64,000 nucleotides of DNA from Escherichia coli. Lineage in GTDB: Bacteria; Pseudomonadota; Gammaproteobacteria; Enterobacterales; Enterobacteriaceae. Below, in pieces: positions 29,501 to 51,728 of this stretch. A program made the position numbers and the translations under genes. A model generated the notes under the pieces. The model was not told where the DNA came from. It saw nothing but the letters and a program-made list of their open reading frames with translations, and ran no database searches. Every line of letters begins with the position of its first letter. Position 1 is the first letter of the stretch. Location of the stretch: NCBI GenBank assembly GCA_005400705.1, contig GCA_005400705.1_4079.1, one strand, 5' to 3'.

Positions 29501-32500
29501 GTAATAGATTGAACTGAACCAAAGTCTGCACCAAATTTAGCATTTGCTGCACTTGGTGTACAAGAAATAAATTCACCCGTTACCAGAGAATTCTGACTCC
29601 AGATCACAAAATCTTTAGCAATAGTGTTCCAATCTTGTTGAGCACCACTATCATTTACATCTTCAAAAATCCAGCCATGTTCTTTAAGATATTCACCATA
29701 ACCACAAATAAAAGTATAAACTTCTTGGTAACTATTAAAAACTTTACCATATTCAATGGAAGCTTCAGATTTCCATTCGTTATAATGAACAACATTGCGG
29801 TTTTCTAATTTAAGAGTTACTTTTCTACCATTTTTCACTGGCAGTTTATATTTGAATTTAGCACCAACTAAATCATATCCATCAATCTGATATGCACTAC
29901 CATTCCAAGTAATTTTGATAGCACTCATTTGTTCATCACGAATATTATTCGAGCGAACAAGACCAATAGTTTGGTTTTCTTGTGAAATAAGACCAAATGA
30001 TTTAGCATTGAATGTTAGCTGATCTGCTTTAGTAAAACCACCAATTTTATGACCAACATTTATATAAGAAGAACGAACTACATCCCCATATTTGGTTGTA
30101 ATGTTTTTATTTTGATACATCAAATAATCACTAACAAACATTTGATAACCAATTGTTCTTGTGTTATTTTCACCATGAACTACAGTGTTTTTATCAAAAT
30201 TAATACGCTTACGTGTATCACCATAAAGGAATTGTGAACCATCAGTGAATACTTCTTTTAAATTGTCATTTCGGGTATCCCAAAAATAGTTAGCAAATTG
30301 TGCAGGTTTAGCTTTATACAAAAGTAGCATTTGGTCATATGCAAACAATGTAGTGTTCATGTATGTAAATTCCATGTCACCCATGTCACCATATGCCCAA
30401 GGTTCTGCTCTATGATTTAAAGAACCAGACACTAAACCTAAAATTTCAGGTGCAATATATTCAACAACACAAATATCAATACCGGAAGATGTTTTATTAC
30501 CAGTTTTTGTGATTTTAAATGGCTGTACACCAAATCTTTTATATTTGTCATACTGTCCACGGCGATCACCAGACAAAATAGTACCAGTACTACTATCTCC
30601 GATAGTGCCGTCGATATCCCATAGACCACTAGGAACTAAATCTCCTTGTTCATTCATAACAAGTGCTTCATATACATATACCACATCACTATCACGCTCA
30701 CCAACTTGAACAGCAGTTGGTTCATATTCTTGGTTCCACCAAGTTGGACGCTGTGAAAAGCCAAACATTTCCCACGGATGTGTTGCAGGGCGATATGTAC
30801 CATATTGGTCAGTATAAATTGCACGCCATGAACCACGAGCAGGAATTTCAGTACTTTGACCATTAACTACATAATAAGTGCCAGTATAGTTCCAAGTTCT
30901 CCAATTGTTAGGATCATAATCATGTGTACTATTACTGATACCATTAGTTGCGGTGAAGTTAATGTATCCACGTAGTAATAATGTTTGTTTCTCTTCAGCA
31001 CTATATTCAGTTTTAGTGAAATATGGTGTAGGGAAAAGGTCATCACTATTCAATACTGGTACGTAATCAACATCTTTGAATTTATTATCAATACTATTAA
31101 AAATTCTATTTTCTAATTCATATACAACATCATCCATTTTATCAACACCATTGATAACACGGTATGCTTTGGAAATAATACCAGTATGACTGATGTTATA
31201 ACAGCTTGGTTTACTACCAGCAGTGAGGAATGTCGCTTTTTCTGGTACATATGCTTGAAGAATACCTAAGAACTGTGGTGTTGGTGGTATAAATGCACGA
31301 ATGAATCCAGAAGTACTTCCAACATTATCATAATAGAATGGGAATGAACTATCACGTCCCATATTAATAGTAGTTAAAATTGCATCAACAATGTTTGCAG
31401 CACTATTTTGTAAAAAGTCTGATGGATTTTCATCATACATACGAAGCATTTGTGTATTAAATTTATTAATGAATCTAAAATATTCAGATTGCATAAACAT
31501 AGTTGCTTCAAACAAATCAATATCTTCATTTGCAGTATGTGCCATCAATGGAAGCATAGATGCTTCATTTTGGATAATTTTAGTACCTACGCCATTATTA
31601 ACCAATCCTTTAGCCAAACGTTCTTCATAGTCATTGAAATCATCAGAAGAACCACGTGTAATGTTCTTTTGAATAATATCCTGAAAATGTAAAGTGTAGT
31701 CACCTTGGTTAATGTATATAATATTAGAATTATATGGGTTATTTTGTAGGTTGATTGGAACTTCATATGCACCTAATTCTTTATTAGGAGTTACAGTACT
31801 GCTATAAGTTCTGATTTGAATAACAGAATCTTCATCCAAATCTACAGTACTATCTAGAGTGATGCTTTGTACTTGACCTTTTGAAACATTTTTGGTATAT
31901 TTGGACACATCAACACCATCAACCACAACTTCAATAATATCAGAATCATTATCTAAAACTTTTTGTGCCAATTCGAATGTATGGTCATATTTTACAATCT
32001 GAACACCATCACCAGTAATTGGATGCCAATCTAGATAAGTTTCACGGTCAGCTTTATAGTACTGATATGTTCTATCAACTTCAATAACATATGCATACAT
32101 ACCATCAACTGGTTCTTTAAAAACTTCCATATCATAAACAGTACTGAATACACGATACATATCAGTACGTTGGACTTGTGGAGTTTGTTTTACAAATTGT
32201 TTAGAGTACTCTTCTGAACGAACCCAATCGGTTTGAAGATTCATTTCATTATTTTCATCAATAATGTTATAATAGTATAAACCATCAATTTCAACTTCTT
32301 TCCCAAGATGGTCATAGGTATAACGTTGGGATTGTAAAAAGTTTTCATAAATGTAATAATTATAATCACCAAGTTCAATGTTATATCCATATACACTATC
32401 AGTTGCATAGTTGTAATTTATTTTAAAACCAAACAACTCTGAACCTTTAAAGTTACTTGATGGATATGTAGTACTGTTGTCAAGTTTGATACCATTACGA

Positions 32501-33570
32501 TCATAAAGTTGGAATTTAGGGAATATGTTAACACTAGTTTTTGATTGTGCACGAACCCACAAAGATCCATTCCAGTACATAGAACTATTACCATACTCAT
32601 TACCTTTAGTGATTAGAACAACATCACCATCTTGAGGTTCACCACTTGGGCGTGATTCGGTTTCTTCTTCTGGATCTAGTGCTAAACCATAAACACGCGT
32701 ACCATCTTGCATTTTTTTCACATATACATTATAAATTCTATTGTTTTCACCATTGTTACCAATACTGGTGAATAGAATACGCATTCCATCTTGCGGAATA
32801 ATACCATCAATACGTATACCACTATTAATATCTTTTTGAACGATATCTTCAGGTTTAATAATATCAGAGAACAGATCAACAGTTCCACGGAATTTTGTAC
32901 CGTAGTTCATTAGCTCAATATTTTTATTATATTCAATAATTGGTGCACGTGCACGAATAAAACGTGAATCTTGCATTAATTCTTCAGTTAATATTGAGCC
33001 ATCTTCTAATGTTTCACCTAAAGTATACCAAAAGTTTTGTAGTGACCATGTATTACCATTAAGTGCTCCACGTTCCATTACAATGTAATCAGGTGAAGTA
33101 ATATTATAAGAGTTTTTAGTATCCCAAAGATATGAGCTAAAATTGTTCATTTTATTTGGGTTAATAGCTGGAGTCCATGCATAAAACTTACCGTTGAACA
33201 AACGGCTTTCATTATCGGTTAGTGCTCCATAATGATTCATGTATCCAACTAGATCATCATAAAATTGAATTGAACGAATTGTCGAATCATCATTTTTTGA
33301 GACGTAAGCAGTGGACAACTGATAAAGTTGACGTGCTACAGTACTTTCATGTAAGAAGATATTACCAGCAGCGGCAGGAGAACCCATATCACCAATATAG
33401 CCGTCAACTAATTCGTTTTCAGCCGGATTAAACCATTGTTGAATAACATCATCACTGACTTTTTGAATATCTTCTAAGCCTTGCATCCACTCAGGCAATC
33501 TTTTAATAAAAAGCTTCTTCTGTACTGCTTCAGCCATCTGTGTAGGTTGAAACTTAAAATTATTAGTCAT
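23599..33570 (-). CDS. giant baseplate wedge / tail structural protein (about 3320 aa, gp7-like position)
   Basis: Single uninterrupted ORF of about 10 kb directly downstream of the gp6-like gene; ORF track gives 33600 as start but ATG 33570 has a GGAG RBS at 6-nt spacing and the first ATG has none. Confidence 0.55.
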   Translation of the reverse strand: MTNNFKFQPTQMAEAVQKKLFIKRLPEWMQGLEDIQKVSDDVIQQWFNPAENELVDGYIGDMGSPAAAGNIFLHESTVARQLYQLSTAYVSKNDDSTIRSIQFYDDLVGYMNHYGALTDNESRLFNGKFYAWTPAINPNKMNNFSSYLWDTKNSYNITSPDYIVMERGALNGNTWSLQNFWYTLGETLEDGSILTEELMQDSRFIRARAPIIEYNKNIELMNYGTKFRGTVDLFSDIIKPEDIVQKDINSGIRIDGIIPQDGMRILFTSIGNNGENNRIYNVYVKKMQDGTRVYGLALDPEEETESRPSGEPQDGDVVLITKGNEYGNSSMYWNGSLWVRAQSKTSVNIFPKFQLYDRNGIKLDNSTTYPSSNFKGSELFGFKINYNYATDSVYGYNIELGDYNYYIYENFLQSQRYTYDHLGKEVEIDGLYYYNIIDENNEMNLQTDWVRSEEYSKQFVKQTPQVQRTDMYRVFSTVYDMEVFKEPVDGMYAYVIEVDRTYQYYKADRETYLDWHPITGDGVQIVKYDHTFELAQKVLDNDSDIIEVVVDGVDVSKYTKNVSKGQVQSITLDSTVDLDEDSVIQIRTYSSTVTPNKELGAYEVPINLQNNPYNSNIIYINQGDYTLHFQDIIQKNITRGSSDDFNDYEERLAKGLVNNGVGTKIIQNEASMLPLMAHTANEDIDLFEATMFMQSEYFRFINKFNTQMLRMYDENPSDFLQNSAANIVDAILTTINMGRDSSFPFYYDNVGSTSGFIRAFIPPTPQFLGILQAYVPEKATFLTAGSKPSCYNISHTGIISKAYRVINGVDKMDDVVYELENRIFNSIDNKFKDVDYVPVLNSDDLFPTPYFTKTEYSAEEKQTLLLRGYINFTATNGISNSTHDYDPNNWRTWNYTGTYYVVNGQSTEIPARGSWRAIYTDQYGTYRPATHPWEMFGFSQRPTWWNQEYEPTAVQVGERDSDVVYVYEALVMNEQGDLVPSGLWDIDGTIGDSSTGTILSGDRRGQYDKYKRFGVQPFKITKTGNKTSSGIDICVVEYIAPEILGLVSGSLNHRAEPWAYGDMGDMEFTYMNTTLFAYDQMLLLYKAKPAQFANYFWDTRNDNLKEVFTDGSQFLYGDTRKRINFDKNTVVHGENNTRTIGYQMFVSDYLMYQNKNITTKYGDVVRSSYINVGHKIGGFTKADQLTFNAKSFGLISQENQTIGLVRSNNIRDEQMSAIKITWNGSAYQIDGYDLVGAKFKYKLPVKNGRKVTLKLENRNVVHYNEWKSEASIEYGKVFNSYQEVYTFICGYGEYLKEHGWIFEDVNDSGAQQDWNTIAKDFVIWSQNSLVTGEFISCTPSAANAKFGADFGSVQSITQNNGGVWSLLDDNNQGIRQYEIETSRIGNIFTVRTLESNKRIALIRLSLCSYEHAVIFDDKTIFGDYIYQPTYGSIQELIKMYGYITGSWTGRLQAPGFIILEAGTLPSFEKLVSDFQHYYDSETPVSDVQLQELSNHLIGYQSRDYLQRMISSDVSRVDFYKGFIHDKGTNQVLERVLRVSKSYDTDEYKALQEWAFKIGTYGNIDGKKNLQFKLINDQFKQQPQMVSFDVNATSNGNGNHIVYFGEQGKDPRWITRPNGKFSFPMRSGRSENIQLPDIGPVTLDEVSYTTKDFSTAYNDRITYTNGKGENPESVWMFKDGNGLWNIFELVDTNVQMVSITPIENTDVYAEQFCKVTLTDNVPLEDGDYYYFVDETNFMPDTLTVESQYYTAGSDPKVMVVPFDTSIDIEFTDPDTRPRLYRYVSRFVSTDERQAYIDKKYSFKAPQSTLFDRPTTYDERTNITELYLNVYDPINGVIPGAAMQNVTYTSPVDPAQYNSNGELIQAWGADKVGQVWWNTSTAFYLDYTRAIYDADGNVDIDATNEYKRYNWGRLLPHSTIDVLEWVCSPVEPYNWDKYCKDVAKKNKNNTMYLPSGTALEDNYSTFLEYDSSTDSYVTKYYFWVRDTIYVPPLHTRTKSCTDIARIIKDPTQLNIPWFAPINENSFILSNMQFKVNDDTSILTVSYYMDSTEVVKHDQYQLCKEGDSYNFNPLIWDSMWNSLIGQETTESGSVINLLYPDVDNGLGSNKTWFQNVIEARRNFVESANNYYRSQNITTNSVVMEDVFNVKTTEVNPNEVSFRVLSYNNELVIAVESDKFKENDAVILSTSGYLPNPLTSSAVYFIHFDENGYIQLMNSPANAGSVVTITLENKGEGQHKMIKQSDYVESLGTSLDMTQYWSYADWYDVGYDSNTTYTQESSLEDANTKNYQVGDIIRVTDSENIWTLYIKSQSRDSIYWKAIGRENSTVELNDMLYADYSVHNDNGSLSNREINVRKALALLKNSFDLHQSEIVFDMVKYVHVEQSVVDWVFKTSYIYIVGLEQSLVQNYSNDNLINQIVEYFEEVKPYRTKIRSQIEQKTSDDDLIKGLCNDLDPNGYIFVDGSWIKTEKDIWDYEYAQFNEITQKWEQVGSLPSDFVTPNRRFQEIDIIMHYDNIQCKPNEDLASINELVSVNNKYQSNEKDAVSNYELQRYIYSFPEYSEETFDLLIAYQMQIYYPELDVTLGTAYGVNQWYKDHAEDLEATDEFTATLERVYKESTHNDMFTDLRQYVQYNTLANRLKLYKDISDEKIHDEVGCGFSGLTYNDNPSTRLPLGFSSSNDYNYGYFEISSELYQKYISLIKDKNPDASDYEVKVKLEVEYGVYVYRYDEVGGDTRFYTDAIHVLAGMRGLFDKDATDKYEKAEEILSKTPIDIYAITMIPRKYVYLNVNGVYQSIPDEQSIDDFMEDYFITNGEMVELAEINLDDLPLDQNNPMYSDYQYILDSITEAKYFNDMNAFDNLALESQTSSIKWEVKDDEVDPYIVDISDINPSGRDVGQIRFTVDGYGFDNVSLVQLRDNSRYQTEGMAIINPYKHTEAIVSIPSYAKIENDINKTTSKFDEKYFYRVRSINSLTEAEIVDNDLSDGDKVMIFTPDGEDFVRYQNHTWETILRVSNIKNNTTPILFTVRNTGKETIELIDESTGTVLRYDNITLAQQNEPVQPLALNIVRVRTFADPEFVKNGIKLYEQNRNYTIDVINYDVFYDTTLNGGKYNDGITPDDVDVWIISNEIFDVDGITIDNGYNLPITGAGVLSELARTKMTDSLEINVIEYDSSVIQPFRNNEGIWVYGFPMVDGMYIGVVGGTVTNITTISEENTTYVSQPKSISPYSIRNNVLSGSAANMNDIISIGYEKVEVRNANNLLRGVMYSAEHDFKLNTTYSFNGINLGNYDMLKRYTQNSYTIDLSVYTDSLQVSGNDIKNILLVK

Positions 33571-33611
33571 TTTTGGACTCCATATAATTCGTTCATTCAT
33601 TTGATTTATTT

Positions 33612-33643
33612 ATGATATAAAAAAGGCGTTCCGAAGAACGCCC
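33612..33643 (-). terminator. intrinsic terminator after the gp6-like gene
   Basis: On the minus strand GGGCGTTC-TTCG-GAACGCC hairpin (UUCG tetraloop) followed by TTTTTTATAT. Confidence 0.65.
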
Positions 33644-33649: not shown

Positions 33650-36600
33650 TTAAGAACCGATATTAATATTACTTTTAGCTAGTGAGTTAACAATTTGAAC
33701 ATTTTCAACAGATGCAGTACTCAAAAATATTTGGTCTGAACGTGAAGGGATTTCAAATAGAGAGCCAAATTTTGAATTTGGATTTTGTGCAACTATAACA
33801 ATGGTACTAATATGTCTACCTAACTGTGAGTGTATGTAAGTACACAAATCAGTATAATAGAAACTTTCACCGAAATCCCAGTTATCAACATTGAAGTATT
33901 CATTAGTTAATGCTATAACATTTTGACGAATTTCATCGTCACTCATTGTGCTGTTTGGTAATTTCACTACTTTAAAATCAGCTTTGTAATCTTCAGCAGC
34001 ACTGTTGCCAAATAAAGGTAAGTACTCAGCACTATGCCAAATAATACTATCACTAATGACTATTTTTTGTTCAACATCTTTGAACATATCTTTCAATTCA
34101 ACCGATGTAGGTGGTTTAGGAATACTACCAACAGCATTATTTTTCAACCAAACGTCAACTTCAGTTTTATATGAATTGGTTAATACATACATATCAATTA
34201 AGTTTGTTCTACTAGGATCAATGCGATTGTCGTCAGGTGCATAGTGTTTCCAATGGAAGTCTATACTAGTACGTGCATTAGTTTTAACAGTGTACTGTGA
34301 AGTAACATCTTTGTATCCATAATAATCTAGCTTCTGATTCTCGTCAGCATTAGTTCCCATGTTATTAATTGCACGATAAAAAGCCAATTCAGGACTAACA
34401 GTGCCAGTATCATCGGAATAAGTTAAATTACTAATTAGCTGTCCTAAACGATCATTGTTATTACCAACTGTTTGTTCAATAAAATAATATTTACCATCAT
34501 AGTTAAAACCAACTAAAAATCCAGAACCTTTACTATATAATCCACTCAATGTGGTTGAACGAATTGCGTTATTTCTAACAAATTCAGTTCTTTTATATGC
34601 ATTCGGCTCTGCCAAGGCTTGTTCCATTGTATAAGACCACGATGAATCAAGAAGTGTGAAGGTATCATTTGGTAACGACAGTACTGATATAGTGAAATCA
34701 CTATTTTCCTGAAATACCAAAATACCACCATATTTTAATGCATCGGTTCCAGTCCAAGTAGGAACAATTTCTTTAAATTGGTTTGGTTCCAATGGTATAC
34801 CATTACTATCTACTTTCCTAGATGTAACAATAACACGAGAACCATCTAGATAGCCATTCTCTTGTTGAATTGTGTCATAAATTTGAAAATCTATATTACT
34901 TGTCAATCCTGAATTACTACTACTAGTAGTGTTAGATGATAAAATTTCAATCTTATCACTTTGAACTGTACCAGTACTAATATCAGTAATTTTTTTAGAT
35001 GATACAAAGTAAAATCTTACTTTTTCTCCACCCACAAAAATATATTCAATACCGTTAGCATCAAATTCCCAAGTTTCTGCTGTATATTTTACATTAATTA
35101 TAATTAAAACTTCATTTCCATTATATACAATAGTATCATCATTGGTACTTACTTCAATAGGAACCCATGATGTCGTTTCTTTGTCATGTACAATAACAAA
35201 ATCAGTTTTTTTATCTAGCATAGCAGAAATTGCTTGAACTTCAACCGAGTTAAATCTAGTTCTATATGGTAAAATGTACTCTATGGCTTGCATTCCACTT
35301 GGAACCGATGTACTCAGTACATAAAATCCATTATCCAATACACTAACTACACTAGCCCATATAGTAGTTCCAGAATTAGAAAATTTAATTAGAGTACCAA
35401 CCTGATATGAACCATAAACTGTACCAGATGAACCCAAAATTCTACCATATGTGTTAGTTGTATAATTTGAATTGTATACCGGAGTCCATGCTTGTTGTAT
35501 TTCAATACCAATTGTATTTGATGGAAACGCTTGGTAACGTTGTATTACCGCATTTTCACCAATCAATGGTTGAATATTGTCAATAACAATACTAGCATTT
35601 GTTTTTGTAGTTGGTAGCAATAATGATCTATTAAATTGTGTGTTTTCTTGATATAATGCACCATCATCACTAAAAACATCGGTATTTTGATACTTACCAG
35701 TAGGATCATTAATATCAATAAATCTTGATTGTCCACTATAAATTCTATTAATAGCTTTAGATTTAAGTACAGTATTGCCTAAACTAAGTGGTGCAATATT
35801 ATAATCTTCACCATTGACAAAACGGTTTTGTGTATAGTACATTTGTGGTGCACGTGCTTTAATCTGCTCAATAGTCTCTGCACTTTGTGCACGGTCGGAC
35901 TCATATTGTAATGAAAAACGTATATCCAATGTACTAGATTCATAACTTGACTGTGTTTTTGTACGATATGTATATTTTACGCTTTTATTTTGAATTTCAG
36001 AAGTTTTAATGTTATATGTTTTACCATTACTAACACGATACCATACACGGAACGTCCCACGGGGAACAACACCACTTCTTGAGTCTGGGTACTTAATTGT
36101 TATTTGGTCTTTATCACGAGTAGTAACAGCAAAAATTGTTTTTAATTGACGATTAACAGTGTTATATGCAATACTTTCCATTGATGGAACTTTTGTCCAT
36201 TTGGTACGAACAATACCATCTTCATTTATTTCTTGAACCCATACATCAGTTTCGTTGATATTATCAACGTTAATATCTTGTATACGGTTCTCTTCACGGA
36301 TAGCATATTGATAATCTTGATATGTCAATGTACCTTGTACGAAATATACAAAAAACCCAGTATTTGGTGAGCTAAATCCATTACCATCATTTTGATAAAC
36401 AATATATTTTTGCTCTTGTGGTTCTGGATGTCGTTCTTCAACACCAACAGACGTAATATCAGGATTCACTACTTCAAATGTCATAGATTCACCATTGACA
36501 GTTGCAACAAATGGAATACTGGGTGCTGTCATTGGGATGGTGTTCATTCGATATAGTTGGCGGGAGACACCATTAACATCAATACGCTTGACTGGATTAC

Positions 36601-37111
36601 CAAATTGGTTAGTACTGACAAATGAACTGTTCATTACTAGAATAAAGTTTTCATACCAGTTAGCATCCATCGGGTCATTCCAACGAATGATTTTATCTTT
36701 TAATGATTCATTAAAACTATTACGAACATCTTGGTTTGTTTTAATTTCGGTTAATTTAGCAACTGCACGACCTGGATATGAGCGGCGTGGTGAGTAAGAA
36801 ATCATTTTAGCTAGTTTTAGTACTGATGCACGACGAGTTGCAGTATCTAAAAAGTTTTCACGTGTGTTCAAATCCATACGAAATGCCAAGTTCTGACCTA
36901 GCATAGAAATCGTATCTAAAATAAAAATAAACTGGTCGTTTTCGATCCAGTCGTTGAATGAGTCTGGGTAAGTTGCACGTAGATAATCAATCATACTCTG
37001 ACGGATAGTATCGAAATCATAAGCTGTTAGATTGATTTTATAAAAACTTTCATATACTTGAGTCCAATCCTCACCACTATATAAATTAGACTGTCTTTTT
37101 TGTTGTGACAT
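33650..37111 (-). CDS. baseplate wedge protein, gp6 / Baseplate_J-like
   Basis: 1153 aa; N-terminal region (YDFDTIRQSMIDYLRATYPDSFNDW...LDTISMLGQNLAFRMDLNTRENFLDTA) follows the Baseplate_J/gp6 N-terminal pattern; sits between gp25-like and giant wedge genes. Confidence 0.6.
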   Translation of the reverse strand: MSQQKRQSNLYSGEDWTQVYESFYKINLTAYDFDTIRQSMIDYLRATYPDSFNDWIENDQFIFILDTISMLGQNLAFRMDLNTRENFLDTATRRASVLKLAKMISYSPRRSYPGRAVAKLTEIKTNQDVRNSFNESLKDKIIRWNDPMDANWYENFILVMNSSFVSTNQFGNPVKRIDVNGVSRQLYRMNTIPMTAPSIPFVATVNGESMTFEVVNPDITSVGVEERHPEPQEQKYIVYQNDGNGFSSPNTGFFVYFVQGTLTYQDYQYAIREENRIQDINVDNINETDVWVQEINEDGIVRTKWTKVPSMESIAYNTVNRQLKTIFAVTTRDKDQITIKYPDSRSGVVPRGTFRVWYRVSNGKTYNIKTSEIQNKSVKYTYRTKTQSSYESSTLDIRFSLQYESDRAQSAETIEQIKARAPQMYYTQNRFVNGEDYNIAPLSLGNTVLKSKAINRIYSGQSRFIDINDPTGKYQNTDVFSDDGALYQENTQFNRSLLLPTTKTNASIVIDNIQPLIGENAVIQRYQAFPSNTIGIEIQQAWTPVYNSNYTTNTYGRILGSSGTVYGSYQVGTLIKFSNSGTTIWASVVSVLDNGFYVLSTSVPSGMQAIEYILPYRTRFNSVEVQAISAMLDKKTDFVIVHDKETTSWVPIEVSTNDDTIVYNGNEVLIIINVKYTAETWEFDANGIEYIFVGGEKVRFYFVSSKKITDISTGTVQSDKIEILSSNTTSSSNSGLTSNIDFQIYDTIQQENGYLDGSRVIVTSRKVDSNGIPLEPNQFKEIVPTWTGTDALKYGGILVFQENSDFTISVLSLPNDTFTLLDSSWSYTMEQALAEPNAYKRTEFVRNNAIRSTTLSGLYSKGSGFLVGFNYDGKYYFIEQTVGNNNDRLGQLISNLTYSDDTGTVSPELAFYRAINNMGTNADENQKLDYYGYKDVTSQYTVKTNARTSIDFHWKHYAPDDNRIDPSRTNLIDMYVLTNSYKTEVDVWLKNNAVGSIPKPPTSVELKDMFKDVEQKIVISDSIIWHSAEYLPLFGNSAAEDYKADFKVVKLPNSTMSDDEIRQNVIALTNEYFNVDNWDFGESFYYTDLCTYIHSQLGRHISTIVIVAQNPNSKFGSLFEIPSRSDQIFLSTASVENVQIVNSLAKSNINIGS

Positions 37112-37172
37112 AATTTATTCCTTTAAATCAGTAAAGTACTAGATCAGTACTGGGAATTATATATAGAAATAT

Positions 37173-37200
37173 TTATTCAAAAAGAAAAGCACTCCGAAGA
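37173..37200 (-). terminator. intrinsic terminator after the gp25-like gene
   Basis: AAGCACTC-TTCG-GAGTGCTT hairpin on the minus strand followed by TTCTTTTTG. Confidence 0.6.
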
Positions 37201-37212
37201 GTGCTTTTATAA

Positions 37213-37608
37213 TTATAAAGACGAAACTGAATATGTTGCCATTCGATTATTACTTCTTGCATCAAATACTATAGTAAGTTCTTCTAATGCGTCCAATACT
37301 ACGTACTGTAATACAATATTCATTTGGTATCCATATTCTATTCTTGAAATTTGTAATTTTTTAAGATTTAAACGTGGGTCTAAGCTAATTATTCTACGGG
37401 CATCTGCTTCTAAAAGGTTGATAGTATTATAACCTTCCAATTCAAATAGCAAATCCCATGCAATAAACCCATAGTCAGCATCAAATGCTCGTTCACCTTT
37501 TTTTGTATTGAAATGATTCATTAAATCTTGGCGAACCAATTCACTATCATACAATGTTTCAGTTCTACCAACTACAGGGGTAGAAAACCCTTTAAAAACA
37601 ACTGCCAT
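37213..37608 (-). CDS. baseplate wedge subunit, gp25 / GpW-like
   Basis: 131 aa; size, position (after spike and lysozyme, before gp6-like) and sequence pattern (RAFDADYGFIAWDLLFE) consistent with the gp25 family. Confidence 0.55.
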   Translation of the reverse strand: MAVVFKGFSTPVVGRTETLYDSELVRQDLMNHFNTKKGERAFDADYGFIAWDLLFELEGYNTINLLEADARRIISLDPRLNLKKLQISRIEYGYQMNIVLQYVVLDALEELTIVFDARSNNRMATYSVSSL

Positions 37609-37623
37609 TGTCTATTTCCTTTA

Positions 37624-38112
37624 TTATACGGATTCAACGATACGTGCCATCTTTTCCGCTCGTGAAGTGGTTTGTTTATACCATGTACTATCACGCAATT
37701 CTTTACCAGCAGTTTTGTAATCAGCTTTACCTAATGCGGTCATTGCTTTTTTAAATTTCAAAACTTTGGTTTTTCCCATTTGGAATACCATTAACCATAA
37801 TACACGTTGTACCTGTACTGGTGCAGTCATACCGAATTGTTCATAAATTGATTTTGCATCATTGTACGCAGTTTGAGCATCTTTGAGAAGAAGTTGGTCA
37901 GCTTGAGCTTCGGTCAAACCATTCTTGAAATTTTCACCAGGAAGAACTAGATGACCATAACCAATAGTATCAAGACCTAAACTGTCTTTATATACCCAAA
38001 ACTTATCATTTTTAAAATAACCAAGTTTTTTCTGATAAGCAATAGTTCCTTCAAATTCTTTAATTTCCTTAAAAAATTGCTCATCTGTATTTTTAATTTC
38101 CCATTTACTCAT
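37624..38112 (-). CDS. T4-type lysozyme (GH24 muramidase), free-standing
   Basis: 162 aa with EFEG...YKDSLGLDTIGYGHL, MVFQMGKTKVLKF and STWYKQTTSRAEKMARIV matching T4 lysozyme motifs; catalytic Glu and Asp equivalents present. Confidence 0.85.
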   Translation of the reverse strand: MSKWEIKNTDEQFFKEIKEFEGTIAYQKKLGYFKNDKFWVYKDSLGLDTIGYGHLVLPGENFKNGLTEAQADQLLLKDAQTAYNDAKSIYEQFGMTAPVQVQRVLWLMVFQMGKTKVLKFKKAMTALGKADYKTAGKELRDSTWYKQTTSRAEKMARIVESV

Positions 38113-38128
38113 AAAGATATCCTCGTTT

Positions 38129-38136
38129 TATTTATA
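38129..38136 (-). promoter_or_regulatory. T4-type late promoter (TATAAATA)
   Basis: Exact TATAAATA on the minus strand 16 nt upstream of the lysozyme ATG, followed by a GAGGA RBS. Confidence 0.5.
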
Positions 38137-38148
38137 GTGCTAAAATAT

Positions 38149-40812
38149 TTATTGACATGCCTCCAAACGACGAGCCATTAACTCCGCACGGCGTGTGGTT
38201 TGGCGATACCAAGCAGAATTACGGATTTGTGCCGCTGCTTGTTTGTAATTACCTTTTGCCATTTCTGATAACATAGTTTTAAATTTCAATACACCACCTT
38301 TACCCATCTGAAATACCATTTGGCATAGTACTTGTTGAGCAAGATAAGGAGTTTTCATGTTATATGATGCATAAATTGATTTGGCATCATAAATTGCTTT
38401 ACTACTATCACGAACTAACATATCGTTGGCTTGCTGTTCAGTTATTCCATCTGAAAAGTTTTCACCACTAATAATCAAGTGACCATAACCAATAGTTGGA
38501 TACCCACGACTATCCAAATAACGCCAGAATTTACCATTACGATAATATCCTTTTGCTTGTTGGTATTGTAATGTACCTTCATATTCTTTTAATTCAGAAA
38601 TAAACTGTGCATCACCTGGAACAACTTTCCAATCGATTGCAGTTTTATCAACATTTCCAATATTATAGGTAGGTTGCTCCACCGGAGTTGTTGAAGCTCC
38701 ACTTCTCTGTGTTCTTCTCCTACGAGGCACATGACGAGAACCACGTTGAGAATATCCAGTACCTATCGTTTTGATTTTTGTTGTAACTACCAATTCATCA
38801 CTATCAACTGAAGGTTGTACAACTGCTTTTGGAGCAGATTGATTAGTTGCTTGACCACCAATTAATGTTTTATTCGCCGCATCAGACCCTGTTCCTGTTT
38901 GTGAAGCATAAAATAATCCTGGGTCAACAGAACCACTGAATCCAAGAACATTTGCTGATGTAACACGAATTTCAAACTGTATGACACCATTTGCTTTTCC
39001 AACAACTTGACCTTTTTGAACAACATCTTTGTTTAATAAATCAGATTGAATATTATAAAAAATAGATTTATATCCAGACTTATGTTGTATTAAAAGAGCA
39101 CCATTAGTAATTACTACCACACCACCATCTGGTGCAACTACATCACCTTTACATTGTATTTCCCAACCTGAACGGTCTGCCTTTCCTCCACTTTGTGTTG
39201 GAACACCTTTCCCCCAGTAACCATATTGTCGAATAGTACCGCTACATGGCATTAACATATGTAAACCTTCATATGTAATACTATATCCAGTCATCCCAGG
39301 ATCAGATGTCATCAAATCTTGTGATTGAACTTGTTCAGTTTCTGATGTATAGTTAACAAACTGAACAGCTTCAGTGTCTTGTGCTACGGGTAATTCTGGT
39401 GATACATCATTTGCTGGTTGTGGTTGTACTGGTGATTCACTAGAACCACTTCCACCACCTTGTCTTGGTGGTTCAACATAACTACCATGATTTTCAGCGT
39501 TAACCCATGCAGCAATATCATGAATGTGTTCATTAAGACCAGCAGATGGTGTTCTAAAGTTTGGTGCAGTAAATTCAGCAGTACCGCTATTACCACCACT
39601 ATTAACTGTTAATGTTTGACCACCACCACTAATAATTGCTGATGATGATCCAATTAGGTTTGCAGATGTTGCGGCAGAAATAGAAGCATTTGAACCAGCC
39701 GTAATATCAGTACTGCTACCACTTTGCATACGTAATGATGCAGCAGTAACTAAACGAAGGTCTGCCCCAGAATTAACAACAACTTGACCACCAACTTTTG
39801 CATCAAGAGCACCAATTAGATCTAATTTAGTATTTGCACCAACTCGTGCATTGAAATCTTGTCCGGTTTCAATATTATATGAACGTCCAGCAGTAATATT
39901 AATATCTTGACCAGCACGAATATTAATATTCTTATCACAGTGCATGTCAATATCACCTTCACCAGTGAATTTTATACGTGCAGTGCCATCACGGTTAATT
40001 AAAAGAACATCACCAGTAGCTTCTGATAAAAGAAGTTGTGCACCACTACGTGTTTTTATTACGACACCTTCATTTTTACGAGAACCAACACGTGTATCGT
40101 TTACTGGGTTATTAAATTGTGTATCTTGATATCCATCTGGGTCTTGATCCCACGTTGGTGCTGTTAATTCCTCTTCAGTATATCCATCATCAATAATAAA
40201 ACTATTACCACGTGGCGAAGACATACCATATACAGTACTGGTGGTTTGACGAGTACTACTACGATTCGCCAACCCAGCTTCTTCGTCATATAAAAGGTTT
40301 TGCTTTTTAAGACCTGCGATAATTGGAACGTTAGCATATTTGTCTTGCATATCGGTAGTGATAGTGTTACGATCATAGTCAGTAACAGGAAGTGGCATAT
40401 CAGTTCCACCATAATTACTTACTTCAGTTGCCATACCAGGAACCATAGTATTCATACGCTGGTCATATACACAACCAATCCAATATGCTTGGAATGTACG
40501 GGCTTGTGCAAAAATTACAACAACTGTACACCCTACATCTGGTGGTACTGCCCAAAAACCATATCCTTTTGGATATTGACCATATGCATCAGCACTTGGA
40601 ATACCTGGTGTTTTGCCAGCAAAAGGAGACATGTAAGATGCTTCTATCCATGATTCTTTTGAGTTTTTATCACTTTGAGAACCTTGTATCCAAACTTTCA
40701 GTTTTCCTGATTTAGTTGGATCTCTGTTATCCATAACAGTTGCTAACTGCGGATAAGATGGGTCAAAACGACCCAACTGCTGTTGTGCATACTTTTTACT
40801 TGTATCTGCCAT
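38149..40812 (-). CDS. baseplate central spike (gp5/VgrG-like) fused to an M23-like domain and a C-terminal GH24 lysozyme domain
   Basis: 887 aa: N-terminal OB-fold-like region; beta-helical repeat region (NINIRAGQDINITAGRSYNIETGQDFNARVG...); M23-like barrel lacking obvious HxH; Arg-rich linker; C-terminal 150 aa paralogous to the free lysozyme (YEGTLQYQQ...PTIGYGHLI...MVFQMGKGGVLKF...). Confidence 0.7.
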   Translation of the reverse strand: MADTSKKYAQQQLGRFDPSYPQLATVMDNRDPTKSGKLKVWIQGSQSDKNSKESWIEASYMSPFAGKTPGIPSADAYGQYPKGYGFWAVPPDVGCTVVVIFAQARTFQAYWIGCVYDQRMNTMVPGMATEVSNYGGTDMPLPVTDYDRNTITTDMQDKYANVPIIAGLKKQNLLYDEEAGLANRSSTRQTTSTVYGMSSPRGNSFIIDDGYTEEELTAPTWDQDPDGYQDTQFNNPVNDTRVGSRKNEGVVIKTRSGAQLLLSEATGDVLLINRDGTARIKFTGEGDIDMHCDKNINIRAGQDINITAGRSYNIETGQDFNARVGANTKLDLIGALDAKVGGQVVVNSGADLRLVTAASLRMQSGSSTDITAGSNASISAATSANLIGSSSAIISGGGQTLTVNSGGNSGTAEFTAPNFRTPSAGLNEHIHDIAAWVNAENHGSYVEPPRQGGGSGSSESPVQPQPANDVSPELPVAQDTEAVQFVNYTSETEQVQSQDLMTSDPGMTGYSITYEGLHMLMPCSGTIRQYGYWGKGVPTQSGGKADRSGWEIQCKGDVVAPDGGVVVITNGALLIQHKSGYKSIFYNIQSDLLNKDVVQKGQVVGKANGVIQFEIRVTSANVLGFSGSVDPGLFYASQTGTGSDAANKTLIGGQATNQSAPKAVVQPSVDSDELVVTTKIKTIGTGYSQRGSRHVPRRRRTQRSGASTTPVEQPTYNIGNVDKTAIDWKVVPGDAQFISELKEYEGTLQYQQAKGYYRNGKFWRYLDSRGYPTIGYGHLIISGENFSDGITEQQANDMLVRDSSKAIYDAKSIYASYNMKTPYLAQQVLCQMVFQMGKGGVLKFKTMLSEMAKGNYKQAAAQIRNSAWYRQTTRRAELMARRLEACQ

Positions 40813-40825
40813 AATATTTTATTCC

Positions 40826-43075
40826 TTAATCAACTATACTATCGTGACGTTTGAGTGCACGAATTACAATTGCAGCTTGAATTTGTTGTGTAAAAGAACC
40901 ACCTGCACCAAAATCATGAACAATTTTATTAACACGATAAATTGTTTGGTTAAATGTGGTTGGTGTATTAATATCCAAAACACCAGTGTTATCATTTATT
41001 GATATTACTGGTTGTAATTTCAGTAATAGATACGCTTCAGATGTTATATAATTTGCTACATGATAATCATCTGGGTTAATTTCCATATCTTCACCATTAA
41101 TTACTTGTTCTAGATATTGTAAGTAAGAGTAATCACTCCACCCTAACCAGTACGGGTCGCCTACTACACGCATATCGAGTTTACACAAAAAAGGTCTATT
41201 GTAATAGTTGTCACGTATTTTACGTCTATCCATTTCATATGTGCTGCTGTTATCGTTTAACGAAGCGGATAAAGTTGTTTCATTGTTAGTTGCTTCGGTT
41301 GGCATTGTGAACACTTCACCATAACGGTGACCAACACCATCAGTACCGCCATCGTTTTCTTCATAAGTGGTTACATAATCCTCAATATATTGAGGTAAAA
41401 CATTGACTTGATAGTTATTATAACGGTCTTGTTCTTCTGCGTTACCAACCTGCATTTGATTTTTTGCTAAAGTTTCAACTTCAGTTAACAATTGTTGTTG
41501 GGCTTGTGTTAACATCCCTCCTAAATCACGAGTTACACGTAAATCACTTGTTTTTGCCCATGCGTCTGGTATACTATTGTATTGTACACCTTGAATATTG
41601 AGTTCTTGGGATGTATGTGTACCTGCATGGTTCGCTACATCTTGTATCGGACCAGGGTTACGTGTAGTGGCTACGAAAAATTGCTGATCGAATTTCAAAT
41701 CCAAATCAAGTATCTCACTATTAAGCCCACTAAATTGATAATTATAAGTTTTCATGTTTATTTTTGGTTTTTGATCATTAGGATCTACGTATTTTTCTGC
41801 GTTCTCGAAAAAGTACTCAAATGTGAAATTTTCAGGTTGTAAATCCGATTCATGAACAATATCACCTATTTTAAATCTAACAATATAAAAAATTACTTTA
41901 TAAACAGAAGTATTACGATAATTATCAAAACCAACGTATTGTTTAACTGGTATAATGTTTACAAATTGACGCACACTAGTACTATCATCGGCTTGTACAG
42001 TACATGTATCAATAACGTCATCAATAATTCGAGATATAGGAGTACTTGGGTTCCATGAAAAGTTTTTAGAACCTTGTGCACCACTTTTAGTTGTTCCGGC
42101 CTCTGCCATTTGTTTAGAATCATAGTTTATAAACAAATCTTGCAAATCAGGTGCTACTTTAAATTCGAAAAATTTACCTTCGGATAATTCACCAAATTTA
42201 TATCTAAGATAACCATATTGTTGGTCAGCCATCTGATTTAATTTATCTTCTAAATCAAAGCAGAAGTCACCAAAGTTTTCAGCAGTACAATTGAATGGTT
42301 CTTTTAAGGTCCATTCAATGTTATCAACTAAAGCTGCTCTATTATGAACTAAGTTCATAGTATACATCATAGTACTACCACTTTGTGAAGCACTTGCAGT
42401 AACACTATTAATTTTAACTGACCAGCGTCTTGTTGTTTCTGGGATAATTTCAGGTATTCCATTTTTATTAAAGCCAATAAACTTTAATTCCAAGATCAAT
42501 GGCAAGTCCATAAATTTATGATATCTAAGTTTGTTACTTAACGAAATTAATTCATCATAAAGACTCATACTATTATTTTCAGACATATTAAGTACTGCTG
42601 TATTAAAACAATAGTTTGTTGTCATTCCTGGTGTTGAAGGTCCAGCTTGTGTCATTTGTACACTAGTGATATTATATTTGCCAGTAACACCACTTTCTGA
42701 TATCACATGTCGTTGCACTTCTGCATCTGGGTAAAGCCAAAAGTTTTTAAAATCATCTTTATCTAAGGCAAATAAACAAAAGTGCCATGTTGGATTATCA
42801 TATTTCAATAATTTATTGTCATACGGTATTACAAACTGACTTAAATCTAGATCTTCATAAACTTGATCAACACTAGCACTTTGTTTTGGTAATGATACTA
42901 CATTACTTACATTTGCTTTGTAATTATTTTTTGTAATAGTTTTTACATCATTTTGTAATGTATTTGCTGTAGCTTTCAAACTATCAAGTGCATTAGATGT
43001 GGTGGTTTTAGCCTTACCAGTAATACTTGTAATATCATTTTGAAAATTATCAACTGTACTTCGTAAATCTGCCAT
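40826..43075 (-). CDS. baseplate hub protein (gp27 / GpD-like), tentative
   Basis: 749-aa ORF immediately upstream of the spike gene and downstream of a LysM-like protein, the conserved hub position; GGAG RBS; assignment is by synteny, not motif. Confidence 0.4.
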   Translation of the reverse strand: MADLRSTVDNFQNDITSITGKAKTTTSNALDSLKATANTLQNDVKTITKNNYKANVSNVVSLPKQSASVDQVYEDLDLSQFVIPYDNKLLKYDNPTWHFCLFALDKDDFKNFWLYPDAEVQRHVISESGVTGKYNITSVQMTQAGPSTPGMTTNYCFNTAVLNMSENNSMSLYDELISLSNKLRYHKFMDLPLILELKFIGFNKNGIPEIIPETTRRWSVKINSVTASASQSGSTMMYTMNLVHNRAALVDNIEWTLKEPFNCTAENFGDFCFDLEDKLNQMADQQYGYLRYKFGELSEGKFFEFKVAPDLQDLFINYDSKQMAEAGTTKSGAQGSKNFSWNPSTPISRIIDDVIDTCTVQADDSTSVRQFVNIIPVKQYVGFDNYRNTSVYKVIFYIVRFKIGDIVHESDLQPENFTFEYFFENAEKYVDPNDQKPKINMKTYNYQFSGLNSEILDLDLKFDQQFFVATTRNPGPIQDVANHAGTHTSQELNIQGVQYNSIPDAWAKTSDLRVTRDLGGMLTQAQQQLLTEVETLAKNQMQVGNAEEQDRYNNYQVNVLPQYIEDYVTTYEENDGGTDGVGHRYGEVFTMPTEATNNETTLSASLNDNSSTYEMDRRKIRDNYYNRPFLCKLDMRVVGDPYWLGWSDYSYLQYLEQVINGEDMEINPDDYHVANYITSEAYLLLKLQPVISINDNTGVLDINTPTTFNQTIYRVNKIVHDFGAGGSFTQQIQAAIVIRALKRHDSIVD

Positions 43076-43086
43076 ACGTTACTCCA

Positions 43087-43401
43087 TTAGCCTATGTTTC
43101 GAGTACCATTAAGATAATTTTGTACTCTTTGATTTGCTGGTATTCTAATTGTTACTCCACTTTTAAAATTATATATAGGATCTTCTCCTAGTATGTCTGG
43201 ATTTAACAATGCGAAAATATAATATAAGCGTTCATTACCATACATTTCGTATGCTAAACGCCAAGGTTGATATTCATATTTCAATGGGATCTCATAAAAA
43301 TCATCAGTATCAGCCGGAACAATATCACGTGGTAAATTATACCCAAGATACCATGTTTGTTTCACCTTAGCGTAAGGTGAGTATTGACTATAGTTGGACA
43401 T
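43087..43401 (-). CDS. LysM-like tail protein (GpX-like), tentative
   Basis: 104 aa; C-terminal segment YEIPLKYEYQPWRLAYEMYGNERLYYIFALLNPDI...SGVTIRIP fits the LysM pattern; position before the hub as in pyocin/Mu-like modules. Confidence 0.4.
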   Translation of the reverse strand: MSNYSQYSPYAKVKQTWYLGYNLPRDIVPADTDDFYEIPLKYEYQPWRLAYEMYGNERLYYIFALLNPDILGEDPIYNFKSGVTIRIPANQRVQNYLNGTRNIG

Positions 43402-44132
43402 TAAATGAATCCTCCTTTACGTAATAGTTCACCACGTTTGAATGCATTGAGGTTGAACGTTTTAGTCATATAATCCGATGTTGGTTGTTCTTCAAGTTGT
43501 AACATAACTGAGATTTTTTGTGGAACCCAAACTTCATCTTGTGGGTTCATATATCCAGTACTTCTAAGTTGTTCGAAGAATTTTCTACTATCCATGTCGG
43601 ATAAATTAAAAGTACTATCGCTACTATTCAACGGAACTTGAATATAAGAAACATCATTTGGGTAAGTAAAATTATAAGATTTTAAAATAACAGGAATATC
43701 ATTATATGTATAACGACCATATCCACTTAGAAGTAAGATTGGTGGTGGTGCACCTGCAATTGCGAGTTCGGGGTTATTAGCCGAAGCAGCTTGTCTACCA
43801 AAATCCATCAACGAAACAGAACGTATAAAATGAACACATGCCAACGCATACATAGCTTCTGCTGCTGTATTCGCATAAAATTCACCCTGAATCGTGAAAA
43901 CTGTATTAGTAGTGTTCTTATAGTTGTTATAGTTACTGTTAGTATGTATAGGGGACTGTGTTTCATACTGAATTGACCTTTGTTCAGTAATTGTTGGTGT
44001 TACAGTCCAAACCAACCCATTAGTTGGACGCAGAAACGAAAGTAGAGTTGGTTCGGAGCTATCTCCAAAATCACCATATACATAGTTAGCACCTGCGGCT
44101 TTAGGTCGTAATCGAATTCTACGATCAATCAT
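43401..44132 (-). CDS. baseplate/tail tube-associated protein (tube initiator-like?), tentative
   Basis: ORF-track 43401..44222; start moved to ATG 44132 (MIDRRIRL...) which has a GGAGAA RBS at 8-nt spacing; first gene of the baseplate operon. Confidence 0.4.
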   Translation of the reverse strand: MIDRRIRLRPKAAGANYVYGDFGDSSEPTLLSFLRPTNGLVWTVTPTITEQRSIQYETQSPIHTNSNYNNYKNTTNTVFTIQGEFYANTAAEAMYALACVHFIRSVSLMDFGRQAASANNPELAIAGAPPPILLLSGYGRYTYNDIPVILKSYNFTYPNDVSYIQVPLNSSDSTFNLSDMDSRKFFEQLRSTGYMNPQDEVWVPQKISVMLQLEEQPTSDYMTKTFNLNAFKRGELLRKGGFI

Positions 44133-44178
44133 CTTTTTGATTCTCCATAATAAGGGAACATTTGATGTATTTATACGT

Positions 44179-44206
44179 GGGACAAACTGCTTTTTGGTGC
44201 TATAAT
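44179..44206 (+). promoter_or_regulatory. sigma70-type early promoter (GGGACA-N16-TGcTATAAT)
   Basis: GTGGGACA 44177-44184, 16-nt spacer, extended -10 TGcTATAAT 44198-44206; shares the core TGGTGCTATAAT with the promoter at 49898. Confidence 0.6.
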
Positions 44207-44263
44207 AACATTGATGGTACAAGGATTGTACCTATTGGATTTAAACATGGAGAGTAAAATACA

Positions 44264-45103
44264 ATGACAAATAGACCAAAGCGTAAAAAGTATCTCAATA
44301 ATGCTGATTTACTGCGTGAAATACAAAAAAGTAAAATTTCATATTGCTGGTTATTAGACAAATCATATAGTATGTATGATTATATTGTTTTTCATGAGTC
44401 AGAAATTACTGCTGAGTTACTAGAAAAAGCTAAGGCAGCCCGAATTAAACGACTGAACAATGAAATGCTTGATAGTATTCGTGAAAAGGAAAATATGAGT
44501 GCTAAAAAAGCTAAAGAATATGCAGATGAACACAATTTAGTTATCACTGACGTTCCAATTGATGAAGTTGTTATTCGTGTTATTACAGATGAACATATTC
44601 CACCAGATACTAGAGTTAACTTTGAACCATTCAAGCATTATATTGTAGATAATGAAGGTATTCTCTATGAAGTTTGTCGTTCTCACTGGAAAGGCGACCT
44701 TGAAACTGGTGAATTCAGTACTGTTCATGGTAAAATTACAAATGAACTTGGGAAGATGTTCATTAAACTTGCAGAGGAAATCTCACACAAATCTAATTAC
44801 AGAAACTATACATACTTAGATGAAATGATGGGTGATGCAAGAATACAATTAGTTAAAAACGCACTTCTCTTTAAAGAGAGCATTCTTTATAAAAAAGATA
44901 AACCAGCAGTTCAGCTAAATCCTTTCTCTTACTATACATCATTCGTAAACAATAGTTTTCGTTCTATATTGAATAGTGAGAAAAATGTTCGAAATATACG
45001 TGATGATTTACTTGAAATGCATGGCTTTACGCCATCACATACACGTCAAATTGAAATTGAATTGAACATGATTGAAAGGAAAAATGAAGATGGCTCTGTT
45101 TGA
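44264..45103 (+). CDS. late-transcription sigma factor, gp55-like
   Basis: 279 aa; N-terminal KKYLNNADLLREIQKSK resembles the gp55 family N-terminus as recalled from memory; conserved T4 synteny gp55-gp47-gp46. Confidence 0.55.
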   Translation: MTNRPKRKKYLNNADLLREIQKSKISYCWLLDKSYSMYDYIVFHESEITAELLEKAKAARIKRLNNEMLDSIREKENMSAKKAKEYADEHNLVITDVPIDEVVIRVITDEHIPPDTRVNFEPFKHYIVDNEGILYEVCRSHWKGDLETGEFSTVHGKITNELGKMFIKLAEEISHKSNYRNYTYLDEMMGDARIQLVKNALLFKESILYKKDKPAVQLNPFSYYTSFVNNSFRSILNSEKNVRNIRDDLLEMHGFTPSHTRQIEIELNMIERKNEDGSV

Positions 45104-46121
45104 TAAAGCAATTACATTCACTGATATTCACTTAGGTTTAAAGAATAACAGCAAGCAACACAATGAAGATTGTTTAAACTTCATTAAATTCATGATTGAT
45201 GTAGCTAAAAAAAATAATATCAAAGTTTGTGTTTTTATGGGAGATTATTTTCATAATAGAAGTAATATCAATATCCAAACACTAAACTATGGTTTACAAA
45301 TTCTTCAATTATTAAATGATAATTTTGAAAAAGTATATTTTTTAGTAGGCAACCATGATATGTATCATAAAAACAAACGTGATATAACAAGTATCAATAT
45401 GGCTCAAGTTTATGAAAATATAGAATTCATTAATGAAATTACAACATTTGATGATTGTACTTTCATTCCATTTATGATTGAAGATGAATATAAGTTGTTA
45501 CCTCAACTAAAAAGTAAGTATGTTTTTGGTCACTTAGAGTTACCAGGTTACTTGCTTAACAAGATGGTAGAAATGCCTGATCATGGAAAAGAAACAGAAG
45601 GTTCTTTTGGTGGTTGTGAGTATGTTTTTAGTGGGCATTTTCATAAAAGGCAGTCAAAAACAACTTCAAAAGGAACTCGTGTAGTTTATACTGGTAATTG
45701 TTTTCCACATAATTTTTCCGATACATGGGATGATGCAAGAGGTGTGATGATTCTTGAACATGGTAAAGAACCTATTTTCAAGTCATGGGATAATGCACCA
45801 AAATATAGAACATTCACACTTTCTGAATTGTTGACTGATCCAAGCTATTATCTACAAGATAACACAATATCAAAAGTTCAAGTTGATATATCAATAACAA
45901 CTGATGAGATTAGTTTTATTCGTGATACATTTACTAAACTTTATAACATTAGGGAGTTTAATGTTGTAACTAGCAAGCAAAGTATTTCAGAATTAATCGA
46001 AGATGGTGTTAGTTTTGAAAGTACTGAATCAGTTGATGAGATAGTTTTACAGCAAATTATGGAAATTGATTCACCAATGTTTGATAAAAATCTTCTAATC
46101 CAAATTTACAGATCGTTATAA
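45090..46121 (+). CDS. recombination endonuclease subunit gp47 (Mre11-like)
   Basis: Calcineurin-like phosphoesterase motifs (FTDIHLG, GDYFHN, LVGNHDM); ORF-track 45072 start is TTG; ATG 45090 has an AAGGA RBS at 9 nt. Confidence 0.8.
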   Translation: MALFDKAITFTDIHLGLKNNSKQHNEDCLNFIKFMIDVAKKNNIKVCVFMGDYFHNRSNINIQTLNYGLQILQLLNDNFEKVYFLVGNHDMYHKNKRDITSINMAQVYENIEFINEITTFDDCTFIPFMIEDEYKLLPQLKSKYVFGHLELPGYLLNKMVEMPDHGKETEGSFGGCEYVFSGHFHKRQSKTTSKGTRVVYTGNCFPHNFSDTWDDARGVMILEHGKEPIFKSWDNAPKYRTFTLSELLTDPSYYLQDNTISKVQVDISITTDEISFIRDTFTKLYNIREFNVVTSKQSISELIEDGVSFESTESVDEIVLQQIMEIDSPMFDKNLLIQIYRSL

Positions 46122-48822: not shown

Positions 48823-48847
48823 AAAAAGTTTTGTGAGGTACACAAGA

Positions 48848-51720: not shown

Positions 51721-51728
51721 TATTTATA
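51721..51728 (-). promoter_or_regulatory. T4-type late promoter (TATAAATA)
   Basis: Exact TATAAATA on the minus strand 34 nt upstream of the 278-aa gene ATG. Confidence 0.5.

Follow-up and report, generated by a model that had tools for sequence, protein, structure and literature searches.

The Rak2-like phages, jumbo myoviruses about 350 kb in size, possess 21 of the 38 T4 core genes, among them gp6, gp25 and gp53 in the gene order described here, and they form a separate deep clade in the portal and capsid trees (PMC5259590). Mass spectrometry has detected six of the eight products of the baseplate gene cluster that is the subject of this study in virions of phAPEC6 (PMC7247149) and CBB (PMC5259590). 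Here we analyze this cluster in a 64,000-nucleotide stretch of DNA from an Escherichia coli assembly, referred to below as the window. Seven minus-strand open reading frames (ORFs) tile positions 33650–44132 with almost no gaps, and an eighth, at 23599–33600, encodes a giant protein of 3333 amino acids (aa). A first-pass annotation had described the cluster as a contiguous 'simple baseplate' module in Mu/P2/pyocin-type order, lying among T4-like genes, and had taken this order to point to a deep-branching T4-core lineage.

We conclude, with a probability of roughly 85%, that the locus holds the core baseplate genes of a jumbo myovirus of the genus Asteriusvirus (Rak2-like) that is nearly identical with phAPEC6, that its gene order is a common one, and that the split arrangement of T4 is exceptional. 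Region 33650–44222 is 99.3% identical in nucleotide sequence to Escherichia phage vB_EcoM_phAPEC6 over its full length, 98.9% identical to PBECO4 (100% coverage) and 97.8% identical to 121Q, and 36 phage records each extend over 80% or more of it. The near-identical nucleotides and the gene order shared with these named members place the phage among the Rak2-like phages in Asteriusvirus, the genus to which PBECO4 is assigned without a family. In phAPEC6, PBECO4 and 121Q, the same genes occur in the same order, with essentially no difference in the cluster, and the products correspond to phAPEC6 gp238–gp245. Neither taxonomy nor close core-protein similarity supports a placement in the Straboviridae, the portal being 28% identical to T4 gp20 over 225 aa. 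The distant kinship of the Rak2-like lineage with T4 is real, but it was published in 2013–2017 on evidence other than gene order. The cluster was annotated correctly, and what it shows was known before and is nothing unusual in this group of phages. The locus has little importance beyond annotation; publications already cover the phage itself, the virion proteome and the remote relationship with T4.

The 121Q and JP4 records contain an extra HNH endonuclease gene within the baseplate cluster, where the nucleotide match falls into two pieces.

Components and expression of the cluster

The genes of the cluster, in the order of transcription, are as follows.

43401–44132, minus strand: tube-initiator-like protein, 243 aa, of the gp48/gp54 and Mu gp43 tube-domain class (fold match)
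43087–43401, minus strand: gp53-like small baseplate protein, 104 aa (PF11246, phrog_7145/232)
40826–43075, minus strand: baseplate hub, 749 aa, with the gp27/Mu gp44 fold
38149–40812, minus strand: central spike with C-terminal lysozyme, 887 aa (PF04717, PF10106, PF00959)
37624–38112, minus strand: free T4-type lysozyme, 162 aa (PF00959)
37213–37608, minus strand: gp25-like wedge protein, 131 aa (PF04965, phrog_43)
33650–37111, minus strand: gp6-like wedge protein, 1153 aa (phrog_219, tblastn, hhalign)
23599–33600, minus strand: giant virion protein in the gp7 position, 3333 aa

The minus-strand gene set and its order, as first annotated, were confirmed by the ORFs and by the tests of the individual roles, and every role that could be tested was supported by Pfam, PHROG, profile or fold matches, the Pfam matches being judged against the curated family cut-offs. 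The boundaries needed one correction: eight genes had been placed within 33650–44132, of which seven lie inside, while the 'giant wedge' lies outside, at the coordinates given above.

Two of the assignments could be made only by structure. Single-sequence and profile searches, including those against Pfam and the PDB, gave no sequence-level match of the hub or the initiator to any family or solved structure, and the structures of both proteins were therefore modelled. Only the fold searches resolved them. The searches of PDB sequences were equally unproductive for the gp6-like and giant proteins. In Foldseek, T4 gp27 (E 6e-6) came ahead of Mu gp44 (E 3e-4) as a match of the modelled hub. The protein is a gp27-type hub that is extended at the N-terminus and carries an insertion near residues 463–630 relative to the gp27/Mu gp44 fold, and the initiator was recognized as a gp48/gp54-type tube initiator. 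In GenBank and RefSeq, the hub, the initiator and the giant protein are labelled only 'virion structural protein' or 'hypothetical', and the gain for annotation is thus a small one: across the jumbo-phage group, two genes can be named from their folds, as hub and tube initiator. Our literature search found no high-resolution baseplate structure of any Rak2-like phage.

The 104-aa protein between the initiator and the hub had been called LysM-like. Its role is retained on the basis of gp53 homology, while the Pfam LysM family gave no match. It matches Pfam PF11246 (Phage_gp53) at E 1.1e-4, with 22.4 bits against a cut-off of 21, and is similar to the gp53 proteins of KVP40 (E 5e-6) and T4 (E 0.029). 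The initiator and gp53-like genes share a TAATG overlap at 43399–43403 on the minus strand, with a strong Shine-Dalgarno sequence, AAAGGAGGA, just upstream, a configuration that predicts translational coupling of the gp53-like gene to the initiator gene. In Mu, a tube domain and a LysM module are held within the single protein gp43 (PMC11915804), whereas here the gp53-like protein is encoded by a separate, apparently coupled gene. The gene pair therefore looks like a split form of the Mu gp43 arrangement.

The spike contains an OB domain of the gp5/gpV type (residues 23–116), a DUF2345 beta-helix repeat (278–329) and a T4-type lysozyme domain (765–882), all above the Pfam cut-offs. It is thus a gp5-type spike with a domain order unlike that of T4: the lysozyme domain, which matches T4 gp5 residues 190–326, is C-terminal here and follows an extension of about 400 aa, whereas in T4 gp5 it is located between the OB domain and the beta-helix. 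The spike orthologue of PA5oct, with 477 aa, has neither the extension nor the lysozyme. The pair 'spike, lysozyme' of the first-pass annotation consists of two real genes, although the spike gene also carries a lysozyme domain of its own. The 162-aa free lysozyme is 52% identical over 158 aa to spike residues 728–885 and is a tandem paralogue of the C-terminal domain of the spike. It is not among the phAPEC6 virion proteins listed by mass spectrometry (PMC7247149), and it is absent from PA5oct and from Vibrio phage 2.275.O. No PAAR gene is present within the cluster.

The wedge is represented by adjacent gp25 and gp6 homologues. The 131-aa protein matches PF04965 (GPW_gp25) at E 1.7e-8, phrog_43, and T4 gp25 at E 2e-5. 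The gp6-like protein matches phrog_219 over residues 26–125 (E 1.2e-20) and cyanophage gp6 in tblastn (E down to 6e-7), and its family profile aligns with T4 gp6 in hhalign over 299 columns (E 5.6e-4); only about the first 350–440 of its 1153 residues align. It is considerably larger than the 660-aa T4 gp6, and it corresponds to phAPEC6 gp244, an abundant virion protein (PMC7247149).

The sequences between the genes are consistent with T4-type late transcription. The initiator gene has as its divergent neighbour a homologue of the late sigma factor gp55 (phrog_234, E 8e-18), and an exact-match search for the T4-type late promoter motif TATAAATA found five copies in the 64 kb, against 10.9 expected. 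Each of the five is correctly oriented and lies 16–47 nucleotides upstream of a late gene, for which the chance is about 2e-9. The motifs, and the terminator-like sequences within the cluster, are the following.

44168–44175, minus strand: TATAAATA, 35 nucleotides upstream of the initiator ATG
38129–38136, minus strand: TATAAATA, 16 nucleotides before the free lysozyme gene
51721–51728, minus strand: TATAAATA, preceding the gp26-like gene
57667–57674 and 58876–58883, plus strand: TATAAATA, the remaining two copies, preceding the scaffold-like and capsid genes
37185–37208, minus strand: terminator-like hairpin and T-run, just after the gp25-like gene (consensus scan and sequence)
33624–33643, minus strand: terminator-like hairpin and T-run, after the gp6-like gene

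A third hairpin with a T-run follows the giant gene. Given these internal promoter motifs and hairpins, the cluster appears to consist of several late transcription units and not of a single operon. The copy at 44168–44175 is located inside a longer, TTG-started ORF, indicating that the ATG at 44132 is the likely initiator start; the position of the motif thus supports the end coordinate originally given to the gene.

Gene order among contractile-tail phages

In Mu, the tape measure gene is followed by those of gp43 (initiator), gp44 (hub), gp45 (spike), gp46, gp47 and gp48 (roles in PMC11915804). The order from the initiator to the wedge in the window equals that of Mu gp43–gp48: initiator, hub, spike, gp25-like and gp6-like genes follow one another, and the giant occupies the sixth, gp7-like slot. 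The chance that the five identified components fall into Mu's order is about 1/120, and the match to Mu noticed in the first annotation is sound. The differences concern the upstream end and the sizes. The tape measure gene of Mu is directly upstream of the initiator gene, whereas the upstream neighbour here is the divergent gp55 gene, and Mu gp47 and gp48 have 360 and 180 aa, as compared to 1153 and 3333 aa for the proteins in the wedge positions here. With proteins of this size the baseplate cannot be called simple. The module is also not fully contiguous, as a gp26-like gene and the gene for a 734-aa protein sit 7–10 kb away, beside the portal gene.

The contrast with T4 itself was correctly drawn. 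T4 has its baseplate genes in two clusters, 53-5-5.4-6-7 at 77–86 kb (extending with gene 8 and those following it to 92 kb) and 25/26/51/27/28/29/48/54 at 115–123 kb, about 32 kb away. Homologues or fold equivalents of gp53, gp5, gp25, gp6, gp26, gp27, gp48/54 and gp15 are nevertheless found in the window, the internal order 53, 5, 6, (7) is kept, and the late promoter motifs and gp55 are shared. The sequence similarity is sparse: BLAST of the window proteins against the T4 structural proteins matched only the gp5 lysozyme domain, gp25 and gp15, and weakly gp53 and gp6, and the same comparison detected no homologues of gp7, gp8–gp12, gp28 or gp51 in the window. P2 is itself split in three, with X at 6.5 kb, V-W-J-I-H-G at 10.3–15.3 kb and FI-FII-E-T-U-D at 17.6–24 kb. 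The designation of the order as 'P2/pyocin-type' is thus wrong for P2, the system compared here.

A further comparison is with KVP40, a Schizotequatrovirus within the Straboviridae. Its genes run gp48, gp53, a 423-aa probable gp27, gp5, 5.1, a PAAR protein, two genes in reverse orientation, gp25, gp6, gp7 and gp8. The 423-aa protein matches T4 gp27 at E 0.011 in pairwise comparison and at E 0.0027 in phmmer, collinearly. As in the window, the gp26 gene of KVP40 is apart from the cluster, beside a large unassigned protein. KVP40 differs in the details: its gp5 lacks the lysozyme and is followed by the PAAR protein, whereas the cluster here has a lysozyme-bearing spike, a free lysozyme and no PAAR; its gp6 (652 aa) and gp7 (1165 aa) are of T4 size and are followed by gp8–gp12, unlike the enlarged proteins here; and its identity to the cluster proteins is only 25–36%, in short stretches. 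In the T4-like cyanophage P-SSM7, gp25 and gp6 are followed by a 7124-aa protein.

These comparisons bear on the view that the contiguous Mu/P2/pyocin-like order sets this phage apart as a T4-core lineage that branched deeply and has a 'simple baseplate'. The order does equal that of Mu, T4 is split, the nearest relatives belong to Asteriusvirus, outside the Straboviridae and without a family, and the published portal and capsid trees do show the Rak2-like phages as a separate deep clade (PMC5259590). However, the same order occurs in KVP40, and P-SSM7 shares the series gp25, gp6, giant, so that this lineage cannot be told apart from accepted relatives of T4 by its order. The split of P2, the large proteins in the wedge positions, and the location elsewhere of the genes for the gp26-like protein and the probable tape measure also speak against this view, which we consider unlikely. 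A distant relative of T4 is present, as the published core genes and trees indicate; what does not hold is that the gene order reveals it. Deep divergence should accordingly not be concluded from a contiguous, Mu-like order. Such an order is common among contractile-tail phages (Mu, KVP40 and the Rak2-like clade), and among the phages compared here it is the split of T4 that is exceptional.

GAP32, CBB and PA5oct retain the order, and the divergence of the module follows that of the portal: in GAP32 the module is 44–68% identical and the portal 73%, and in PA5oct the values are 21–37% and 42%. This argues against the proposal that the module is a Mu-like or tailocin-like baseplate cassette acquired horizontally by a T4-core genome. 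The G+C content across the region is also uniform (0.32–0.37). The best outside matches of gp53, gp25, the gp6 N-terminus and the gp5-type lysozyme are T4-like phages or cyanophages, the hub fold is nearer to T4 gp27 than to Mu gp44, and T4-type late promoter motifs precede module genes. On the grounds of the uniform composition, of T4-family proteins as best outside matches and of a divergence that follows the portal, we reject acquisition from a Mu-like element, which appears extremely improbable.

Several points weigh against our conclusion. The confidence of the hub model is moderate (predicted local distance difference test, pLDDT, 65.5), and the promoters and terminators are predicted from their motifs. 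In KVP40, the gene that separates gp53 from gp5 is probably gp27, to which only its position, its size and a weak match at the N-terminus point. In Vibrio phage 2.275.O (20007–24907 and 31743–42112), the hub gene is beside the portal, where the gp26-like gene and the homologue of the 734-aa protein are also found, and neither hub nor spike gene is upstream of gp25 in Atu_ph07 and SCTP-2, only gp25 and gp6 being together. These three arrangements indicate that the order is not fixed even within the jumbo group. The exceptional status of the T4 split is based on the comparison of four lineages rather than on a phylogenetic reconstruction. The gp7 role of the giant, finally, is assigned by its position, and the sequence comparisons that bear on it are described in the following section.

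The giant protein and the baseplate wedge

By analogy with the solved T4 and Mu baseplates, the initiator hexamer would seed polymerisation of the tube, which would be plugged by the hub together with the spike and the tape measure. The gp53 and gp25 proteins would link the trimeric hub to six wedges, each composed of (gp6)2 and a gp7 equivalent, and the spike lysozyme would digest the peptidoglycan upon contraction. The N-terminal part of the giant would probably serve as the gp7 equivalent, and the remainder of the protein would form a large periphery carrying the fibres.

The giant corresponds to phAPEC6 gp245 and is present in virions (PMC7247149). Its family comprises 996 representative clusters at 50% identity, nearly all of 2000–6000 aa. 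The most widely conserved part is a domain of about 140 aa at the extreme N-terminus; a collinear conserved body extends to about residue 2450, and a lineage-specific tail of about 850 aa follows. Both the homologues and the PHROG profile begin at Met11, suggesting that the annotation may begin 10 codons too soon and that Met11 may be the real start.

No sequence comparison connected the giant with gp7. The Pfam domains that mark T4 gp7 (PF21428, PF21456 and PF21427) are absent from it, and ten divergent N-termini searched against Pfam at E values up to 10 yielded no gp7 match. Hidden Markov models of three N-terminal segments did not match any T4, Mu or P2 protein, a profile search against the PDB showed no gp7 signal, and hhalign was negative against T4 gp7 alone and against the 41-sequence gp7 family, Mu gp48 and P2 gpI. 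In a control, however, the same profile approach also missed the hub and initiator relationships that are proven by the folds, and the negative result for gp7 therefore carries little weight. The giant of P-SSM7, which has the same gene position, shows no detectable relation to the 3333-aa protein.

We tentatively propose, at slightly less than even odds, that the giant is a fused 'all-in-one' wedge protein. Its N-terminal domain of about 140 aa, the size of gpI or gp48, would take the gp7 role in the (gp6)2-gp7 core, and the next 2300 or so conserved residues would replace the peripheral proteins of T4 (gp8–gp11 class). If so, it would represent a widespread and structurally undescribed way in which huge phages build the baseplate periphery. 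The alternative is that the giant is not the gp7 equivalent but a peripheral or fibre-scaffold protein, the true gp7-like subunit being encoded elsewhere or constituted by the C-terminal half of the gp6-like protein. The latter is about 500 aa longer than T4 gp6, the giant lacks detectable similarity to gp7, gp48 and gpI, and in SCTP-2 the gene after the gp6-like one is gp15-like, with no giant there, all of which agree with this alternative. It is nonetheless doubtful, given that a gp7 homologue follows the gp6 homologue in Mu, P2, T4 and KVP40, that in size the N-terminal domain of the giant roughly equals Mu gp48 or P2 gpI, and that the profile method failed on the hub and the initiator as well. 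This very large and widespread family of giant baseplate proteins, with a gp7 role suggested by position, is a lead for further work.

Neighbouring genes

The genes that surround the cluster and enter the comparisons are listed below.

1766–2695: td
44264–45103, divergent from the baseplate cluster: gp55
45072–46121: gp47
46130–48277: gp46
50850–51686, minus strand: gp26-like baseplate hub protein, 278 aa (PF12322 T4_baseplate, E 3.2e-24; phrog_150)
51817–54021, plus strand: 734-aa virion protein, candidate tape measure, before the portal gene

The T4-like character ascribed to the head genes, gp46/gp47, gp55 and td holds, the portal, protease and major capsid protein being of T4 type. It is also correct that an unassigned 734-aa gene precedes the portal gene and that no sheath or tube gene is present in the window; these genes are located outside it, and the sheath of phAPEC6 is gp277. 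The gp26-like protein shows a weak match to KVP40 gp26 (E 0.008).

The 734-aa protein is probably the tape measure, and its gene beside the portal constitutes a second lead. The length of the homologues scales with that of the tail: the CBB protein has 722 aa for a tail of 123 nm and the PA5oct protein 798 aa for one of 136 nm, corresponding to 5.87 aa per nm in both. The protein evolves much faster than its neighbours. It resembles coiled coils, the only matches that its family profile gave in the PDB and noise as far as a direct test of the tape-measure role is concerned, and one of six family members matches a tape-measure PHROG, weakly (E 0.028). The homologue in Vibrio phage 2.275.O sits between the hub and gp26-like genes. 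The arrangement of that phage is a natural 'half-split', in which the initiator, gp53, spike, gp25, gp6 and giant genes stay together.

HNH-type homing endonuclease genes are found among the structural genes at 48833–49804 and 60046–61341, both on the plus strand, and the HNH gene 3' of the capsid gene has no counterpart at that site in PBECO4. A gp15-like tail completion protein of 447 aa is encoded at 18331–19674 on the minus strand, only its first 230 or so residues matching the T4 gp15 family. Its homologue in Salicola phage SCTP-2 (23739–25100) directly follows the gp6-like gene, in the place where the giant sits here. Between the giant and tail-completion genes, at 21254–23563 on the plus strand, lies a gene for a 769-aa AAA+ protein resembling an 'ATP-dependent protease', which is kept at the same place in GAP32.

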